Positions 4,799 through 35,498 of a DNA stretch of 64,000 nucleotides are shown here, one piece after another. The position numbers and the translations under genes are program-made. Position 1 is the first letter of the stretch. Every line of letters begins with the position of its first letter. The notes beneath the pieces are model-generated. The model did no database searches. It was not told where the DNA came from and was given only the letters and a program-made list of their open reading frames with translations. The stretch lies in NCBI GenBank assembly GCA_964351905.1, contig CAYGPG010000002.1, positions 49,320 through 113,319 on the forward strand. Direction: 5' to 3'. Source of the stretch: an uncultured Micavibrio sp. GTDB taxonomy: Bacteria > Pseudomonadota > Alphaproteobacteria > Micavibrionales > Micavibrionaceae.

Positions 4799-5317
4799 TT
4801 AATTGGGTGGTGACGTGTAAGTTCTAGCGCAACTAACCATTGCGTTGCTACGAATTTTTTCGATATTTTTTAATCGTAAATCTGGTTTCGCCCTAAAATC
4901 TCTGGCGGCGCGATTTGCACTACATTCGCAGTAATCAACATTGTTATTGGCACGCGATCTAAAAGTTTGTGAGTATTCCATACAGTCTTTAAAAGTATCA
5001 CCTGCGATAGAGGTTGTATTGATACACTCAGGTCTTGGGTTGTCGGTAATTTCTGAATAAATTTCACCTTGTGGTATTAAAAGTTCGGATTCACGTTGGT
5101 TACGAAAATCACCTGCAATACAGGCGCAGTCAAAATAAATTTTTTGAAAATTATTATTTTCACAGACTTGGTATATATATTGAGCCTCTTCATCTTTTTC
5201 TTCATCAGAAAAAATTCCGTCATCTTTCATAAAATAAAAGCTGTCTTTTATTTCGGCTTGTGCGATCTGCGGGAGGCTAAAGGCCAAAAATGTTAGTATT
5301 AAAATTTGTTTTATCAT
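4799..5317 (-). CDS. Secreted Cys-rich hypothetical protein
   Basis: 172 aa. Signal peptide MIKQILILTFLAFSLPQIAQA and 9 Cys in the mature part. AT-rich. No recognisable family. Confidence 0.5.
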   Translation of the reverse strand: MIKQILILTFLAFSLPQIAQAEIKDSFYFMKDDGIFSDEEKDEEAQYIYQVCENNNFQKIYFDCACIAGDFRNQRESELLIPQGEIYSEITDNPRPECINTTSIAGDTFKDCMEYSQTFRSRANNNVDYCECSANRAARDFRAKPDLRLKNIEKIRSNAMVSCARTYTSPPN

Positions 5318-5342
5318 TGTTTTATAATAGCATAATGGTAGC

Positions 5343-5376
5343 CAAAAAGAAAAAAGACAGGGTTTAAGCCCTGTCC
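5343..5376 (-). terminator. Rho-independent terminator downstream of the 5410-6018 gene
   Basis: On the minus strand, stem GACAGGG / CCCTGTC with loop CTTAAA, followed by TTTTTTCTTTTT. Confidence 0.6.
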
Positions 5377-5409
5377 TTTAATTTATATTTATCAAATGTT
5401 TAGTATGAC

Positions 5410-6018
5410 TTAGGCGGCTTTATCGCCTTTAATCTTTTTCCAAAGACCTTGGAAGTTTAAGCCTGCATTTTCAGTTTCTTTCGCTTTTTCTTCTGTTAGG
5501 CGGCGTTCTGCAGAGCCGTTTTGTTTGTTTTGGTTTTGTGCTTTTTGCTGTTCGATTTTTTTCATGCGCTCTGCCATTATTTGCTCGCGACGTTTACGTG
5601 CTTTCTCTTCACGGCTTTTTAATTCTGCCTTGTAATCTTCAGCTTGTTTTTGACTATATTGGCTAGTGATCAGAACTTGTTGGGCTTGTTTTTGCCATTG
5701 ATCACGTTGCGCTTTGAGGTCTTCAACCGTGCCTTGTGATGTTTCTAATTGATCTTCGAGCATTTTGATTTTCATCTTCATGCGTTCCATTTCAATCATG
5801 TCTGTGGCTTTTTTCAATTCTGCTTCGACAGAAGAAGGCGCGTTATCTTTAGCTGGTGATTTTAATCCAAACACACGTTCTATTTCAGACACGTCGATAA
5901 TGCGGCGGTCATTGGAGTCCATTTCATAGGACAACTTGCCGCTGTTCATCGCGCGTTGGATGGTTGATTTTGATTTGCCTGCTAATTCTGCTGCACGTTG
6001 TGCGCCTACTTTTGCCAT
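5410..6018 (-). CDS. HTH DNA-binding protein with long charged coiled-coil tail
   Basis: 202 aa. N-terminal excisionase/MerR-like HTH AAELAGKSKSTIQRAMNSGKLSY...IDVSEIERVFG, followed by a K/E/Q-rich heptad region. Confidence 0.55.
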   Translation of the reverse strand: MAKVGAQRAAELAGKSKSTIQRAMNSGKLSYEMDSNDRRIIDVSEIERVFGLKSPAKDNAPSSVEAELKKATDMIEMERMKMKIKMLEDQLETSQGTVEDLKAQRDQWQKQAQQVLITSQYSQKQAEDYKAELKSREEKARKRREQIMAERMKKIEQQKAQNQNKQNGSAERRLTEEKAKETENAGLNFQGLWKKIKGDKAA

Positions 6019-6095
6019 AACTTTACCTCTTTAAAATCAGATATTGGCTTATTTTTTCAAATAATTCAAATAATATTTTACTTAATCACCAGTTT

Positions 6096-6905
6096 TTACT
6101 TTTCTGTCTCTAGAATGTTATTTAGCAGACGTGTAAGGCGTTGCCATTGCGCGCCAGAAAACAGATGTGCGTACAAGAAAGGAAGATATCCTTTTGCACG
6201 CCATTCTAAGAAGGTTTTATCGTCTAATTCAGCTAATTTCTTCTCATCAATTATGCGGAAACCTGCAAAATTGATCTTTTTACCATTACCAATGTTAATT
6301 TCCGCTTGGCGTTCAACCAATAGACCAGAAGCTTCTAAAGCCTGTCCAAATTGAACAGTCTGCTGGGCGGCGGCATGGTATGATTTACAAAATTCTAAAG
6401 CATTTTTAGAAAGTTCAGATGGTTTTCCATCTTCATTGAAGAAAGGCTGTGAGCCCTTTGATTCAATGACGTCTTTATCAAGGTCAACACAAAGTGAGAG
6501 TTGATCGTTATTTGGCATTTCGCTGAAGATAAAGGGATAGCGACGGATGTAAGCTGGGATATAGGTGTCTTCTAACCATTGGTTTTTACCGTTTAAGAAC
6601 AGGTTTTCATTGTCACGCAGGCCGATAATGGCGACAGGTGTGGCGGATTTATCAGGGGCAAAGCCGATGGGGTAGAAATGACAGATTTGCGGCATTTCAA
6701 TCATATTAATCGGTACGGCATTCACGTTTTTTGTGAATTTAAGCCCAAAGTTAGGCTTTAATCCTAAATCTTTGTGCTCTTTTGCATCAAGAGGTATAGG
6801 GCTGTCGTAAAAAAGTGGCATTGGCGGCTTACTTGCCCCATTTGCTTTTGAGTCCTTCTTTTGGGATTCTGCTTTTTTCGCTGTTTTGTTTTCTTTTTGA
6901 GCCAT
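6096..6905 (-). CDS. SapC family protein
   Basis: 269 aa. The pattern PINMIEMPQICHFYPIGF ... YIPAYIRRYPFIF ... LCVD matches my recollection of the SapC family signature (YIPAYxRRYPF). Confidence 0.65.
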   Translation of the reverse strand: MAQKENKTAKKAESQKKDSKANGASKPPMPLFYDSPIPLDAKEHKDLGLKPNFGLKFTKNVNAVPINMIEMPQICHFYPIGFAPDKSATPVAIIGLRDNENLFLNGKNQWLEDTYIPAYIRRYPFIFSEMPNNDQLSLCVDLDKDVIESKGSQPFFNEDGKPSELSKNALEFCKSYHAAAQQTVQFGQALEASGLLVERQAEINIGNGKKINFAGFRIIDEKKLAELDDKTFLEWRAKGYLPFLYAHLFSGAQWQRLTRLLNNILETEK

Positions 6906-7100
6906 TGGCTAGCCTTCCTTGATGATTACTGTAATGCATAAATTAAAAATTCTTAGCTACTTAAGCAAAAATGGAGGTTAAAGGCAATTCCTCATCATTG
7001 GATAGTTGTAATTATAACCATTAAAACACTTGTTTTTTGACGGTTAAATCGCTTTATTAAGGCCAAATATCATCAATTTTTGTAAAAGAAGCATAATATT

Positions 7101-10348: not shown

Positions 10349-12262
10349 ATGAAACAGATCAATAAATCATCAAATCTATCTTTGAGCGTGGTAATTGTAG
10401 GACACGTGGATCATGGGAAGTCGAGCCTGATAGGTCGGTTGCTTCATGATACGGATAGCTTGCCCGCGGGGAAACGTGAAGAATTAGAAGCAATTTGTGA
10501 AAAGCGTGGCGTGCCGTTTGAATGGTCGTTCTTGCTTGATGCGTTTCAGGCGGAGCGTGATCAGGCGGTAACGATTGATACAACGCAGATTTTCTTTTCA
10601 ACGGCGGCGCGTAACTATGTGATTATTGATGCGCCAGGCCATCGTGAGTTTTTGAAAAATATGATTTCAGGTGCGGCGCAGGCTGATGCAGCGGTCTTGG
10701 TGGTGGATGCGTCTGAAGGGGTGCGTGAACAAACAAAACGTCATGCTTATATGCTTTATTTGCTTGGCATGCGCCAAATTTGTGTTGTTGTCAATAAAAT
10801 GGACAAGATGAATTATGATGCAGAAGTTTTTAATGACGTATCGAAACAGACGACTGATTATTTAGAATCTTTAGGCTTGCAAGCGTCTTATATTATACCG
10901 ATTTCCGCGCGTGAAGGGGACATGATGGCGACCCGTGGCGGGGCAATGTCATGGTATAAAGGTAAAACCTTGATTGAGGTTTTGGATGCGTTTGATGTCT
11001 CTAGCCCGCCAGTGGCGCAGCCGTTGCGTTTCCCTGTTCAGGACGTTTATCGTTATGAAGAAGAACGTATTTTGGTCGGACGGATTGAAACGGGTATTTT
11101 ACGCACAGGGGATACATTATTTTTCTCCCCCACCAATGAAAAAGCGGTGATTACATCGATTAAAAGCTGGCCAGAAGATGAAGGGTTGGTGCAGGCCAAT
11201 GCAGGAGATTCAGTCGGGATTACGTTGGATGATCGTATCTTTGTGGAGCGCGGTCATGTGGGTAGCCATGAGAAAAACTTGCCGATGTTATCGAACGTGT
11301 TTCAGGCCAATATTTTCTGGTTGTCTCATACGCCGTTGAAGGTGGGTAACACGTACAAGGTACGTTTTGGCACAACAGAAGCCACGGTGAGTGTACAATC
11401 TATTGACACACTGATTGATACAGGCGATCTTCAAAAGCAAGATAATCCAAGTGAAGTCGGGCGTAATGCCGTCGCAGAAGTGACGTTCCGCGCGCGTGAA
11501 ATGTTGCCGATTGATCCGCATGAAGATAACGCCAAGATGGGGCGTGTTGTTCTTTATGAAGGATATGATGTTGCGGGTGGTGGTTTGATGAATATGGATG
11601 GTTATGCCGACCAACGTCAGTCTGCGGAGCCGAAATCTAAGAATATTTATAAAGTGTCACATTCTGTGACGCCAGAAATGCGGGCAGAACGTTTTGGTCA
11701 TTTTGGCGGCGTGTTTTGGTTTACGGGATTGTCGGGATCAGGGAAATCAACCTTGGCCGTGGCGGTGGAGCAGGAAATTTTTGAACGTGGTATGAATGCT
11801 TATGTGCTTGATGGGGATAATGTACGTTATGGATTGAATTCAGACCTTGGGTTTTCACCAGAAGATCGCACGGAAAATATCCGTCGCGTAGGCGAGGTGG
11901 CGGCATTGCAAGCGACCGCAGGTGCGGTAACGTTATCGGCATTTATTTCACCTTATCAGGCTGACCGCGAAAAAGCGCGTGCCGCTGCGCCGCATATTTT
12001 CCATGAAATTTATGTGAAGGCAGATTTGGCCACCTGCGAAAGCCGTGATCCGAAGGGGCTTTATAAGAAAGCGCGTCAGGGGGAAATTAAAGAATTTACA
12101 GGAATTGATAGCCCGTATGAGCCACCGACCAACCCAGATTTGGTGGTCGACACACAAGGCAATGACATTGAAACCTGCGTGAAGCAGATTGTGAATTATA
12201 TCGAAGCCGCCGTTAAAGCCGAGCAGAAAAATAGTAAAGAAAAAGTTGTGGCGATTAAATGA
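10349..12262 (+). CDS. cysNC: Bifunctional sulfate adenylyltransferase subunit 1 / adenylylsulfate kinase (NodQ-type fusion)
   Basis: 637 aa. GTPase motifs [14 protein letters not shown] and NKMD, then an APS kinase P-loop GLSGSGKST. Confidence 0.9.
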
Positions 12263-13131
12263 GTAAAATTTTACAGCATCTTCCTGCGTTGTTGAACCAA
12301 GTGCGTCGTGTGGCGGTTGAGGCGGGGAATCTCACGCTCGATTATTTTGACGAGAGTGGTTTTGAAGGGGCGGATGCGAAGTCTGATGGATCGCCCGTGA
12401 CGGTTGCAGATCAAAAAGCAGAAGAATTAATTGAAAAAGCCTTAAAAGAAATTACGCCTGATGTCTTGATTGTAGGAGAAGAGGCGGCGAGCGAAGGGTA
12501 TCGTCCTGATCTGACAAAACATGAATATTTTTGGCTGGTTGATCCGTTGGATGGCACGAAAGAATTTATTTCTGGCAGTGGTGATTATACGGTCAATATT
12601 GCGCTTATTCAGCGTCCCCCCCTTACATCTCCCCCGCCTGCGGGGGGGAGTTTGAGGGGGGGTAAACCTGTCCTTGGTGTTGTCTATGCCCCCGTGCATG
12701 GCGAGCTTTATGCAGCATGTGGCGAGGGCACAGCAATCCGTTGGATGGAAGATACGGATAAAGAGCGCGCGATTTCTGTGCGTCCTGTGCCAAATGAGGG
12801 GCTGACGATTGTATCGAGTAAGTCGCATGGTAAGGGCGATAAGTTGGATGCGTTTTTAGAAAATTATAAAATCAAAAAACAAATTCAACGCGGAAGCTCT
12901 TTAAAAATGTGTTCCATTGCGGCGGGTAAGGCCGATATGTATCCGCGTTTTGGATTAACATGTGAATGGGATACAGCCGCCGCGCATGCGGTTTTAAATG
13001 CGGCGGGCGGTGTGATAACAGATATTCATGGCAATGAATTGACCTATGGTGGGGCTGATCCGAAATTTCTTAATCCAGAATTTATTGCGCGCAGTGCGGA
13101 GATTGATTTGCCTGAGAGCGTAGCGGCATAG
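12259..13131 (+). CDS. cysQ: 3'(2'),5'-bisphosphate nucleotidase, with an in-frame repeat-derived insertion
   Basis: 290 aa. IMPase-family motifs [12 protein letters not shown] and [10 protein letters not shown]. 4-nt ATGA overlap with cysNC. Confidence 0.85.
12616..12663. repeat. G/C-homopolymer palindromic module inside cysQ
   Basis: CCCCCCCTTACATCTCCCCCGCCTGCGGGGGGGAGTTTGAGGGGGGG, translated in frame as [17 protein letters not shown] second copy lies in alaS. Confidence 0.7.
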
Positions 13132-32402: not shown

Positions 32403-34250
32403 TTAATGATTTTGCTTCATCTCTTCTAGCTCTAACCAACGGTTTTCGTAGCGTTCTAGTTTGGATTGTGCTTCTTTTAGGTTTTTGACGGTGTCGTGGA
32501 AACCTTCGGGGTCGCGGTTGTAATAATCGCCATCTGATAGCTTCTCGTTCAATTCTACAATGACTGTTTCCACGCTTTTTATTTTATCAGGAAGCTGTCT
32601 TAATTCGCGTTCGAATTTATAGGATAATTTAACGGCGGGTTTCGATTCCGCTTTCGGTTCTTCTGTTGTCTTCGATGGTTCTTTTTTCTTTGTTGGCCCA
32701 GACGAAGGTTTTGGATTTTCTAATGATTTTTTCTTTTCTAAATAATCACTATAGCCGCCAACGCAACTGACAATTTTTCCATTGCCTTCAAAGGCGAGGG
32801 TTTTGGTGACGGTTTGGTCAAGGAAGTCACGGTCATGCGACACCACAAGTAAGGTGCCTTTATATTGCATCAAAATTTCTTCGAGCATGTCGAGCGTGTC
32901 CATATCCAAATCATTTGTTGGCTCATCAAGGATAAGACAGGTTTTTGGATTGGCCAAAATTTTAGCAAGCATTAGGCGGTTTTTTTGTCCTCCAGAAAGC
33001 ATAGACACCTTGTCATAGGCGCGGGAGGGATCAAACATGAAATCTTTAAGATAGCCGCAGACGTGGCGCTCTTTACCCATCACATCAATGTAATCCCCAC
33101 CACCGGGGGAGAGGATTTTGCGTAAAGTATGTTCGGGGTCAAGGTCACTTCGTTTTTGATCGAAGTAGGAAAATTCTAATTCTTTACGGGTTTTGACGCG
33201 CCCTTGGTCGGGCTCAATTTCACCGAGGAGCATTTTAAGAAAGGTTGTTTTGCCTGAGCCATTTTTGCCCAATATGCCGATACGATCACCGCGTTGAATA
33301 CGATAAGAAAATTTATCGAGGACAGTGAGGGTCTTATCGCCATTTTCAAATTTCTTAGAGGTATTATAAAATTCGGCGACGATCTTGGATGATTTATCCA
33401 TGTCGCCAATAGGCTCCATTTTAATTTTACGCGTAGCTTTACGATAGGCACTTTCATCGGCTTTCAGTTGGTCGCGCATTTCACGCACCAAGGCCAAACG
33501 TCTGACGTTACGTTTACGGCGTGCTTTGACACCGCGGCTGGCCCATTCCACTTCTTGGCCAACAATTTGTTTGCGGTTGTGAAGTTCGCGCTCTTCTTGT
33601 TCCAAAAGCTCTGTTGACCAATCTTCAAAATAACGAAAGCCCTTAGGACTGACGCGGATTTTACCACGATCGAGCCAGAAGACTTTATCTGTGACGTTGG
33701 CGAGGAAGGTTCTATCGTGGCTAATCACCATTAATGTGCCGCGATAGTTTTTAAGATAAACTTCAAGCCATTCTATGGCTTCTAAATCCAAATGGTTGGT
33801 AGGCTCGTCAAGGAGCAAGATGTCAGGTTCTTCAACCAATGCACGTGCCAACCCTGCGCGGCGGAGTTGCCCCCCAGACAATTTGGTCATTAACGCATCG
33901 CGGTCTAACTGTAAAGCTTCGGTGACGATATCGACCTTATACATGTGCAGGTCTTTTTCATCGTCTTTGATTTCTTGGAAGATATAGTCAAAAACGGTTT
34001 CGCCTTCTTTGGGCTTAATATCTTGTTTGAGGTAGCCGATGGTGGTGCCAAATTCTTCCCAACGCTCACCATCATCTAAATCTTGGGTGCCTGTGATGAT
34101 ATTCATAAGTGTGGTTTTACCCGCGCCATTCTTCCCGACGAGCGCGATACGGCTGCCTTGATGGATGTTAAAAGACAGTCCTTCGAACACGGGAACTTCC
34201 GTGTAGCGAACAAGAGCGTCTTTAACTGATAAGAGGAGAGGTGGTGGCAT
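32403..34250 (-). CDS. uup: ABC-F family ATPase (Uup-like)
   Basis: About 616 aa counted from the ATG at 34250 (MPPPLLLSVKDALVRY). Two ABC cassettes (GKNGAGKTT, LSGGQ twice) and a C-terminal coiled coil. Confidence 0.85.
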   Translation of the reverse strand: MPPPLLLSVKDALVRYTEVPVFEGLSFNIHQGSRIALVGKNGAGKTTLMNIITGTQDLDDGERWEEFGTTIGYLKQDIKPKEGETVFDYIFQEIKDDEKDLHMYKVDIVTEALQLDRDALMTKLSGGQLRRAGLARALVEEPDILLLDEPTNHLDLEAIEWLEVYLKNYRGTLMVISHDRTFLANVTDKVFWLDRGKIRVSPKGFRYFEDWSTELLEQEERELHNRKQIVGQEVEWASRGVKARRKRNVRRLALVREMRDQLKADESAYRKATRKIKMEPIGDMDKSSKIVAEFYNTSKKFENGDKTLTVLDKFSYRIQRGDRIGILGKNGSGKTTFLKMLLGEIEPDQGRVKTRKELEFSYFDQKRSDLDPEHTLRKILSPGGGDYIDVMGKERHVCGYLKDFMFDPSRAYDKVSMLSGGQKNRLMLAKILANPKTCLILDEPTNDLDMDTLDMLEEILMQYKGTLLVVSHDRDFLDQTVTKTLAFEGNGKIVSCVGGYSDYLEKKKSLENPKPSSGPTKKKEPSKTTEEPKAESKPAVKLSYKFERELRQLPDKIKSVETVIVELNEKLSDGDYYNRDPEGFHDTVKNLKEAQSKLERYENRWLELEEMKQNH

Positions 34251-34314
34251 GGGGCATCTTATAACGCGAAGTTTAATGAAGCACAATTCTTTAAATATCT
34301 TATCAAACGTCATT

Positions 34315-34366
34315 CGCCCTCTCTTTCCCTCTCCCTCAGGGAGAGGGGGAAGATAGAGGGGGATTT
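34315..34366. repeat. C-rich/G-rich near-perfect palindrome between adhC and the ABC-F gene
   Basis: CCCTCTCTTTCCCTCTCCCTCAGGGAGAGGGGGAAGATAGAGGGGG. The architecture (C-rich arm, central palindrome, G-rich arm) resembles the cysQ and alaS modules. Confidence 0.6.
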
Positions 34367-34379
34367 TGTGAGGTTGGGG

Positions 34380-35498
<1,119 letters not shown>

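Follow-up and report, generated by a model that had tools for sequence, protein, structure and literature searches.

How does a G+C-rich palindrome come to lie in frame within a housekeeping gene and leave it open? This question is raised by cysQ, the gene of a 3'(2'),5'-bisphosphate nucleotidase, in an uncultured Micavibrio sp. The stretch of DNA analysed, here called the window, comprises 64,000 nt (contig CAYGPG010000002.1, positions 49,320-113,319, forward strand; assembly GCA_964351905.1). Within cysQ it carries a module of C and G runs separated by short spacers, and a second such module is found in alaS, the gene of alanine--tRNA ligase (AlaRS). We conclude that the cysQ segment is probably one copy of a repeat that is very small, non-coding and G+C-rich and has the form of a nested hairpin, a selfish element resident in frame and similar in kind to repetitive extragenic palindromes (REPs) and Rickettsia palindromic elements (RPEs).

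An in-frame insertion in cysQ

The cysQ product has its best solved-structure match in CysQ 3b8b (E 1e-34), and its homologues carry the name CysQ. The module, copy 1 in Table 1, starts at a codon boundary and the reading frame is unbroken on either side. Sequence, open reading frame (ORF) and clean flanks thus agree with the initial annotation, which had placed a palindromic G/C element in frame in this gene. Two of its measures are corrected here. The module, given as 48 bp, is 47 nt long: base 12663 lies outside it, being the T in a GGT codon of the host gene. The gain, given as 16-17 residues, is exactly 15 residues or 45 nt by protein alignment, by codon comparison and by a HMMER alignment with 3b8b, which opens a gap for these 15 residues. 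The expected hairpin is found: as single-stranded DNA, copy 1 folds to -18.8 kcal/mol (z -3.5). As for base composition, the contrast that had been noticed is real (modules 74-76% G+C, copy 1 74%, remainder of cysQ 47%), but the gene is not strongly AT-rich, as had been stated, in a window of 42% G+C.

The tetranucleotide TTAC, which follows the first C7, is present at the same place in the alaS copy. It also recurs in cysQ of a different metagenome-assembled genome (MAG), GCA_964352765.1 (locus L002), where a diverged module occupies the same codon.

Filled and empty sites were compared using the 120 closest CysQ proteins (64-100% identity) and, apart from the window protein itself, the 119 closest AlaRS (68-88%). 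The cysQ segment is absent from 117 of the 120, including proteins about 90% identical, and a tight turn ALI-x-[N/D]-[G/N]-xPV is found in its place. In L277, whose CysQ is closest to that of the window at 90% identity, the empty site reads CGT GAT/GGT AAG, and in L278 it reads AAA AAT/GGC GAG (slash, insertion point); filled sites have exactly 45 extra bases ahead of the Gly codon. None of the 119 other AlaRS has the alaS segment. Nearly all read ...LVK-D-G-xxVE... there, and the empty site was confirmed in DNA by the orthologue in L124. The cysQ and alaS copies are lineage-specific insertions, an outcome that the initial annotation had anticipated for cysQ from an alignment of orthologues. 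The comparison of filled with empty alleles of cysQ (two lineages) and alaS revealed no target-site duplication.

The insert lies directly 5' of GG, belonging to a Gly codon, in all four sites with a known empty allele: GAT/GG, AAT/GG and GAT/GG (cysQ, cysQ and alaS) and CTT/GG (polA). This placement may reflect target preference or selection for turns. Where added length is measurable, it amounts to 45, 45, 45, 69 and 42 nt.

In the AlphaFold model of CysQ (mean pLDDT 87), residues 119-134 are predicted as coil between strands 111-118 and 135-144. In that of AlaRS, strands 467-479 and 501-505 enclose a predicted coil of residues 480-500, of which 482-498 have a pLDDT under 50. Since insert-free homologues have a turn at these places and the models have coil between strands, both insertions appear to lengthen an Asn/Asp-Gly beta-turn. 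Together with the gap against 3b8b, the models are consistent with the surface loop that had been proposed for the cysQ insertion.

A second copy in alaS

The alaS product matches E. coli AlaRS 3hxu with E 5e-173, and Micavibrio is the name that some source records give to the closest relatives of this AlaRS. Copy 2, located within this gene, is a variant with a long last spacer, another example of which is found in L071; as single-stranded DNA it folds to -21.0 kcal/mol (z -3.0). Both copies are read in the same frame, as had been annotated, because in each of them the first C7 coincides with the start of a codon. They have a 30-nt core in common in spite of residing in unrelated genes, and loop GCCTGC of copy 1 (12636-12641) is the reverse complement of loop GCAGGC of copy 2 (47341-47346).

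The pattern C7-N2-10-C5-N3-10-G7 matches the window at the cysQ and alaS sites only, compared with 0.00 matches in dinucleotide-preserving shuffles of the window (n=100). Nowhere else in the window do 7-nt runs of G or C cluster. No further copy was detected in 6.4 kb of the source genome upstream of the window, and Rfam at gathering threshold returned 0 matches for the entire window.

Table 1. Positions of the two element copies, their parts and their host genes in the window
Feature	Position	Strand	Description
Host gene cysQ	12259-13131	+	3'(2'),5'-bisphosphate nucleotidase, 290 aa; ORF; Pfam Inositol_P
Element copy 1	12616-12662	+	47-nt nested hairpin, C7-TTACATCT-C5-GCCTGC-G7-AGTTTGA-G7
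Net inserted DNA of copy 1	12616-12660	+	45 nt; final GG of the module readable as part of pre-existing Gly codon GGT
Outer 5' arm, C7	12616-12622	+	pairs with 12656-12662 in predicted fold
5' internal spacer	12623-12630	+	TTACATCT; contains family-wide TTAC
Inner hairpin	12631-12648	+	C5 arm 12631-12635, loop GCCTGC 12636-12641, G7 arm 12642-12648
3' internal spacer	12649-12655	+	AGTTTGA; AGAATGA in same-codon copy of L002
Outer 3' arm, G7	12656-12662	+	
Host gene alaS	45887-48613	+	alanine--tRNA ligase, 908 aa; Pfam tRNA-synt_2c/tRNA_SAD/DHHA1
Element copy 2	47324-47378	+	55 nt, long-spacer variant, C7-TTA-C7-GCAGGC-G7-AAGCGACTGGAAGGAGTA-G7; last spacer 18 nt
Whole extra coding segment in alaS	47321-47392	+	net +23 aa / 69 nt; boundaries +/- ~1 codon

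C7/G7 hairpins in other genomes

Copies were sought in 185,579 species genomes (596 Gb) with the pattern C7TTAC-N5-35-G7 and in metagenomes with a pattern of the canonical type (type A, below); each scan yielded at least 120 loci. Family counts given in this work are counts among the matches listed. By our own estimate, about 500 chance matches to the genome-scan pattern are expected across 596 Gb. Single matches therefore carry little weight, and assignment to a family leans on the unforced structure of the matches. Names of host genes in other genomes (PolA, ValRS etc.) were read by eye. As had been suggested from the cysQ copy, the motif does occur elsewhere, and more widely than in one genome: besides the copy in alaS, a repeat family is found in many genomes and metagenomes.

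Two types can be distinguished. Among the matches listed, the canonical type A of metagenome copies is C7-TTAC[ACG]T-C7-GCNNGC-G7-A[ACG]AGA-G7, 45 nt in length, and the commonest 3' spacer is the 5-nt AAAGA. Type-A lengths, likewise among the matches listed, peak at 45 nt with 8 copies and at 42 nt with 6, each value being divisible by three. Examples are L005, with C7-TTACGT-C7-GCTCGC-G7-ATGAA-G7, and L065, with loop GCTAGC and spacer ATCAA; further loci are L024, L062, L071, L048 and L118. MAGs with type A are labelled Rickettsiales, Rhodospirillaceae, Pseudomonadota or Alphaproteobacteria.

The shorter type B, [C7-nn-]C7-TTACNAA-G7-nn(n)-G7, prevails in Microcoleus and other Oscillatoriales, Planctomycetota, Nitrospirota and Patescibacteria, often in many copies per genome. 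The G-run left free by the search pattern is exactly 7 nt long in 84 of 96 type-B copies among the matches listed. In the family as a whole, some loci contain several copies within 8 kb. In Microcoleus, Patescibacteria and Nitrospirota, type B also occurs in frame in housekeeping genes.

Further, we examined location of the clusters relative to genes, counting those with at least 100 open codons to either side in one frame and taking random positions of the same loci for comparison. Among the matches listed, hosts below 50% G+C have 50 of 89 clusters (56%) in long open frames, as compared with 36% of random positions. In hosts above 60% G+C, mostly Planctomycetota, it is 13 of 69 (19%) against 48%. 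In such high-GC hosts the elements act as extragenic REPs usually do, and inverted doublets are frequent. Closely spaced type-B doublets of this kind, mostly outside long ORFs, are present in Planctomycetota loci L016, L030, L041, L047, L063 and L079. Their arrangement resembles that of REPINs (REP doublets forming hairpins), whereas low-GC hosts carry single or tandem intragenic units instead.

ORFs spanning the elements were recognised by eye as DNA polymerase I (L005, L024), ValRS (L013, L022), ProRS (L026, L117), PurL, CobN, AroE, SbcC, thiolase, RarA, aconitase and a histidine kinase. Among the peptides they encode are PPLTSPPLAGGMKGG, PPLTKGGLGGV, PPYQGGARGG and PPQPPLGKGG. A peptide census with a synthetic query of five frame-0 variants gave 141 word-sharing candidates, none of them at E <= 10.

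The initial annotation had argued that such a module cannot easily introduce a stop codon. This is correct for the runs, which encode none, but not for the spacers, owing to which two of the six frames of each window copy contain a stop. Nor does the family appear designed to be stop-proof: elements have a mean of 4.2 open frames out of six (4 in each window copy) and random host DNA of equal length has 4.3. Elements are no more stop-free than random DNA; survival in genes therefore reflects filtering, not design. Among the matches listed, 20 canonical type-A copies lie in ORFs with 80 or more open codons to either side. They use every frame and both orientations, and the frame of the window copies (sense, phase 0) is the commonest with 8 of the 20.

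Two further groups of sequences were noted during these scans. In cyanobacterial loci L061 (3769-3942), L021 (4611-4755) and L110 (2385-2482), the short hairpin and a spacer form in-frame tandem arrays. These encode repeats of 10-11 residues, e.g. PPLSQGERNLA, in long ORFs including that of an SbcC-like ATPase. Viral contigs gave 28 matches to a loose pattern, mostly simple C7-TTAC-C7-loop-G7, indistinguishable from chance or unrelated hairpins. Several simple C7-TTAC(T)-C7-loop-G7 hairpins occur on predicted viral contig L248/L273 (IMGVR_UViG_3300035698_034795), and single ones on others within L254-L269.

Turnover of copies

A neighbour-joining tree of 60 CysQ proteins was constructed with the insert columns left out. 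The three insert-bearing proteins fall into three different clades. P0001 (window) and P0004 (L002) each have a 90%-identical nearest relative free of the insert (P0003 and P0025, respectively), and the third carrier, P0039 (L003), is also placed among insert-free sequences. The window and L002 copies have perfect C7/G7/G7 runs, though their genes are 74% identical in DNA. The L003 copy, also 45 nt long and in frame, has a different internal layout and eroded runs (GCTCCTCCCC...GGGGGGTGGA).

Same-codon copies in three CysQ lineages indicate either a hot spot or precise loss on several occasions. We read them as repeated insertion at one cysQ hot spot, followed by decay. The strongest competitor is a single ancient insertion, inherited vertically and removed by many precise deletions, which would imply neither a hot spot nor recent mobility at this site; we regard it as unlikely, though deserving of consideration. 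The window and L002 copies have unusual details in common, namely TTACATC, an AGNNTGA spacer of 7 nt, erosion of the inner C-run and Arg as the codon ahead of the insert, and palindromes are prone to deletion. On the other side, the three carriers are scattered over three clades among about 57 insert-free sequences, so that many independent exact losses would be required, each of them restoring the N/D-G turn. Perfect runs at 74% identity are improbable after long neutral drift (0.74^21 ~0.002, our own estimate), and the internal layout of the L003 copy differs.

Other genes, too, show signs of turnover. One polA site is filled in L024 and empty in L005, which has its copy at another polA site. 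In aconitase the site is occupied in L184 and vacant in L177 and L246, and the number of copies in AroE differs between Microcoleus species. In ProRS of Microcoleus, a type-B copy occupies the same codon in L026 (ORF 5162-7082, +) and L117 (ORF 409-2338, -) in opposite orientation, and the tandem copy number differs as well (NPPQPPLGKGG(QQDSNPPLGKGG)x2QGGV versus NPPLTKGGQGGV). Several GCNNGC loop types are found in both orientations across the family, with ratios of 8:4 for AA/TT, 3:2 for CT/AG and 2:1 for GA/TC among the matches listed. This pattern in the sequences suggests flip-flop inversion of the hairpin loop.

Other explanations of the inserts

The hairpin might remain untranslated, either bypassed by the ribosome, as is the case for mitochondrial byp elements, or removed from mRNA. 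GC-rich hairpins in mitochondrial genes of Magnusiomyces are indeed bypassed. We consider this very unlikely here: the frame is uninterrupted at both window insertions and in about half of the other copies examined, and the added lengths given above, together with the decayed but still in-frame L003 copy, require no bypass.

Ordinary extension of a loop under host selection, by local duplication or slippage and not by a repeat element, appears slightly less probable still. It is true that the turn is variable and that some other AlaRS have unrelated short inserts at the same place. Nevertheless, the two unrelated genes of the window contain a common 30-nt core, the modules differ sharply in G+C from the window, and the identical architecture recurs in numerous genes across numerous taxa. 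The use of all frames and both orientations is also unlike a selected peptide.

Homopolymers of 7 bases or more slip at high rates, and G7/C7 tracts could thus serve as a phase-variation (contingency) switch of cysQ and alaS. There is little to recommend this idea. AlaS is essential, each insert has four tracts in the middle of the gene, and the module occurs in dozens of unrelated housekeeping genes. The window loci themselves are unlike phase-variable ones, their protein products being identical in independent assemblies and their hosts being housekeeping genes.

An artefact of assembly or sequencing such as poly-G noise, to which four error-prone 7-nt homopolymers in a MAG could give rise, is the least credible explanation: an independent Logan assembly of run ERR3534970 encodes an identical CysQ, an identical AlaRS is recorded from both NCBI and Logan, the L002 MAG has its diverged copy at the same codon, the frame is intact, and the family is also present in assemblies named as Microcoleus strains, not MAGs, and in multi-megabase MAG contigs.

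Comparison with known elements

RPEs were reportedly described by Ogata and colleagues in 2000. They are about 100-150 bp long; to our knowledge, they lack C7/G7 runs and TTAC and are confined to Rickettsia. They end in CGTC (PMC3733652). The copies described here resemble RPEs as selfish palindromes of an alphaproteobacterium that would encode a surface peptide in frame in housekeeping ORFs, are lineage-specific and decay. In-frame insertion into ORFs at positions modelled as surface-exposed is a trait of both. Unlike RPEs, they form units of 47 and 55 nt (net 45 and 69; family modes 45 and 42), have unrelated sequence and occur in several phyla. CGTC is found only by overlap at the cysQ junction (CAGCGTC) and is absent at alaS (AACTC), in L002 (AAGAC) and at other copies. 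The RPE precedent invoked in the initial annotation would accordingly be best kept as analogy: membership in that group is contradicted by size, sequence and end-tag.

REPs tagged with GTAG/CGTC are in some cases intragenic, and Di Nocera et al. (2013, PMC3733652) report such copies in the DNA polymerase I gene and in tRNA synthetase genes; sites of intragenic insertion differ between species (PMC3733652). Our elements share with these intragenic REPs the short G+C-rich stem-loop, the multi-copy nature and location of some copies within genes; in other MAGs, too, they are short G+C-rich imperfect palindromes with multiple copies per locus or genome. In contrast to REPs, they have no GTAG/CGTC tag, their conserved tetranucleotide is internal TTAC (GTAA on the other strand), and their stems are runs of exactly 7. 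REPs are mainly extragenic; the window copies are intragenic, and a mainly extragenic location is only seen in high-GC Planctomycetota.

For REPINs, mobilisation by a single-copy HUH/Y1 enzyme, the REP-associated tyrosine transposase (RAYT), has been proposed (Bertels & Rainey 2011, PMC3116915; PMC5581495). Common features are hairpin repeats without target-site duplication and, in Planctomycetota loci, inverted doublets of the short form. The window copies differ in being single and intragenic, and no RAYT was found beside any copy in a crude screen of about 270 loci. A miniature transposable element of the inverted-repeat kind (MITE) with terminal inverted repeats and target-site duplication is also a poor match: there is no such duplication. 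The C7 and G7 ends do form an inverted repeat with one another, but no parent insertion sequence (IS) was found.

TTAC is the cleavage and target tetranucleotide of IS608. Hairpins and the lack of both target-site duplication and IS-like terminal inverted repeats are shared with IS200/IS605 elements (IS608) and their miniatures (PMC6006769). Unlike IS608, the elements have TTAC in their interior, lack it at empty sites, and consist of a single nested hairpin, not of distinct left and right ends. By analogy, precise excision of the IS608 kind would account for their patchy distribution.

Yeast mitochondrial GC clusters, Allomyces double-hairpin elements and byp elements of Magnusiomyces are short G+C-rich palindromes in organellar genomes of lower G+C. 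Similarly, our elements have spread in a lower-GC genome, sometimes within coding regions. Their sequences differ from those of the organellar elements. Unlike byp, which breaks the frame and is bypassed, they keep the frame without a stop, and their hosts are free-living or predatory bacteria.

In behaviour the elements match RPEs and intragenic REPs, but they do not belong to RPEs, REPs or MITEs by the defining features of these groups. No description of C7/G7-run elements or of the peptides they encode was found in the searchable literature, which does not extend to subscription-only papers.

Origin and mobilisation

The view of the segment as selfish palindromic DNA living within coding genes, put forward in the initial annotation, is supported by lineage-specific insertion, by existence of a family and by the loop position. 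Copies entered cysQ and alaS at an Asn/Asp-Gly codon boundary, in a tight turn joining two beta-strands, without target-site duplication. The genes stay open because the gain in length, 45 and 69 nt, is divisible by three and no stop occurs in the frame that is read. The repeat would then be translated into a Pro/Gly-rich coil and the enzymes would tolerate the extra loop. Selection would act as a sieve, through which only in-frame, stop-free loop insertions survive. Old copies decay by point mutation to ordinary coding sequence. Spread would depend on trans-acting activity encoded elsewhere.

As to the nature of this activity, single-strand "peel-and-paste" mobilisation by a HUH/Y1 enzyme, either IS200/IS605 TnpA or RAYT-like, is a tentative proposal that we hold to be possible but short of probable. 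It fits better than a cut-and-paste MITE because of the hairpin, the lack of target-site duplication and IS-like ends, and the TTAC beside the inner hairpin, and also because of same-site re-use and loop flip-flop. It is opposed by the position of TTAC, which sits inside the element and not in the target.

A broader proposal, just as speculative, is that these elements constitute a cross-phylum superfamily, with members in Alphaproteobacteria, Cyanobacteria, Planctomycetota, Nitrospirota and Patescibacteria. It would comprise hairpins of 30-45 nt with C/G runs of exactly seven around a conserved TTAC. These would be site-specific, inserting into coding DNA just 5' of GG at ...RAT/GG..., re-invading the same codons and moving within and between genomes by machinery that has escaped recognition.

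Several points weigh against the reading of the cysQ segment as a mobile in-frame repeat or against parts of it. Translation of the insert is something we infer from frame conservation. There are just 2 clear copies in about 70 kb of the source genome. No transposase was identified by Pfam among the 10 small or unannotated ORFs of the window, and all-against-all BLAST of 7,098 ORFs from about 270 loci revealed no recurrent mobilising neighbour. Recurrent neighbours, read from representatives, are large paralogous families only, namely kinases, ABC transporters and aconitase. A crude regular-expression screen for HUH/Y1 motifs near the loci gave two matches, neither of them credible. The apparent target RAT/GG is drawn from four sites and could equally be due to selection for N/D-G turns. 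The codon preceding the insert is Arg (CGT in the window, AGA in L002), not Asn/Asp, and the exact junction is ambiguous. Finally, the link between types A and B would follow from shared motifs that are partly imposed by the search pattern. Features that the pattern did not force, i.e. the second G7, AAG and the free run of exactly 7, argue for a real family.

The layout of paired runs, G7-N-G7 and C7-N-C7, could be part of the recognition or insertion mechanism. As sequence patterns, G7-N5-G7 also fits the quadruplex motif G3N1G3-N5-G3N1G3 and C7-N6-C7 fits an i-motif. Quadruplex or i-motif potential might be the reason for the strict length of seven bases.

Other features of the window

Directly upstream of cysQ lies a fused cysN/cysC ORF (10349-12262, 637 aa) with GTP_EFTU and APS_kinase domains, which overlaps the cysQ start by 4 nt (ATGA); a PAPS_reduct gene is located upstream of it. 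The overlap of cysN/cysC with cysQ points to a translationally coupled sulfate-activation operon.

Another nested hairpin, CT-rich/GA-rich GCCCTCTCTTTCCCTCTCCCTCAGGGAGAGGGGGAAGATAGAGGGGG, is situated at 34316-34363 (+; -16.8 kcal/mol, z -4.0). It is intergenic, between minus-strand ORFs 32403-34313 and 34380-35486, and its stem is built in two tiers like that of the C7/G7 element. Whereas it may be an intergenic copy, degenerate or related, it may also be a structure without any relation to the family.

Significance

Ever since the Rickettsia elements were reported in 2000, palindromic repeats lying in frame in essential genes have counted as a curiosity, and the way in which REP-like sequences move is still unsettled. 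The kind of element described here, a selfish palindromic repeat in frame inside genes, is known; the C7/G7 family itself was not found described. What sets it apart is the extremely small and stereotyped homopolymer architecture, its presence in several phyla, its residence in essential enzymes and recurrent use of the same codon. Core enzymes serve as hosts across phyla, among them aminoacyl-tRNA synthetases, DNA polymerase I and aconitase.

There are practical consequences as well. Four 7-nt homopolymers in essential alaS represent a frameshift hazard, and C7/G7 elements give rise to errors in the annotation and assembly of MAGs. They also leave a Pro/Gly-rich signature in protein databases (PPLTSPP.AGG..GG, PPLTKGGLGG, PPYQGGARGG). 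Since the same codon is occupied in separate lineages, target choice, excision and decay of these elements are open to comparative genomics and simple in vitro assays.

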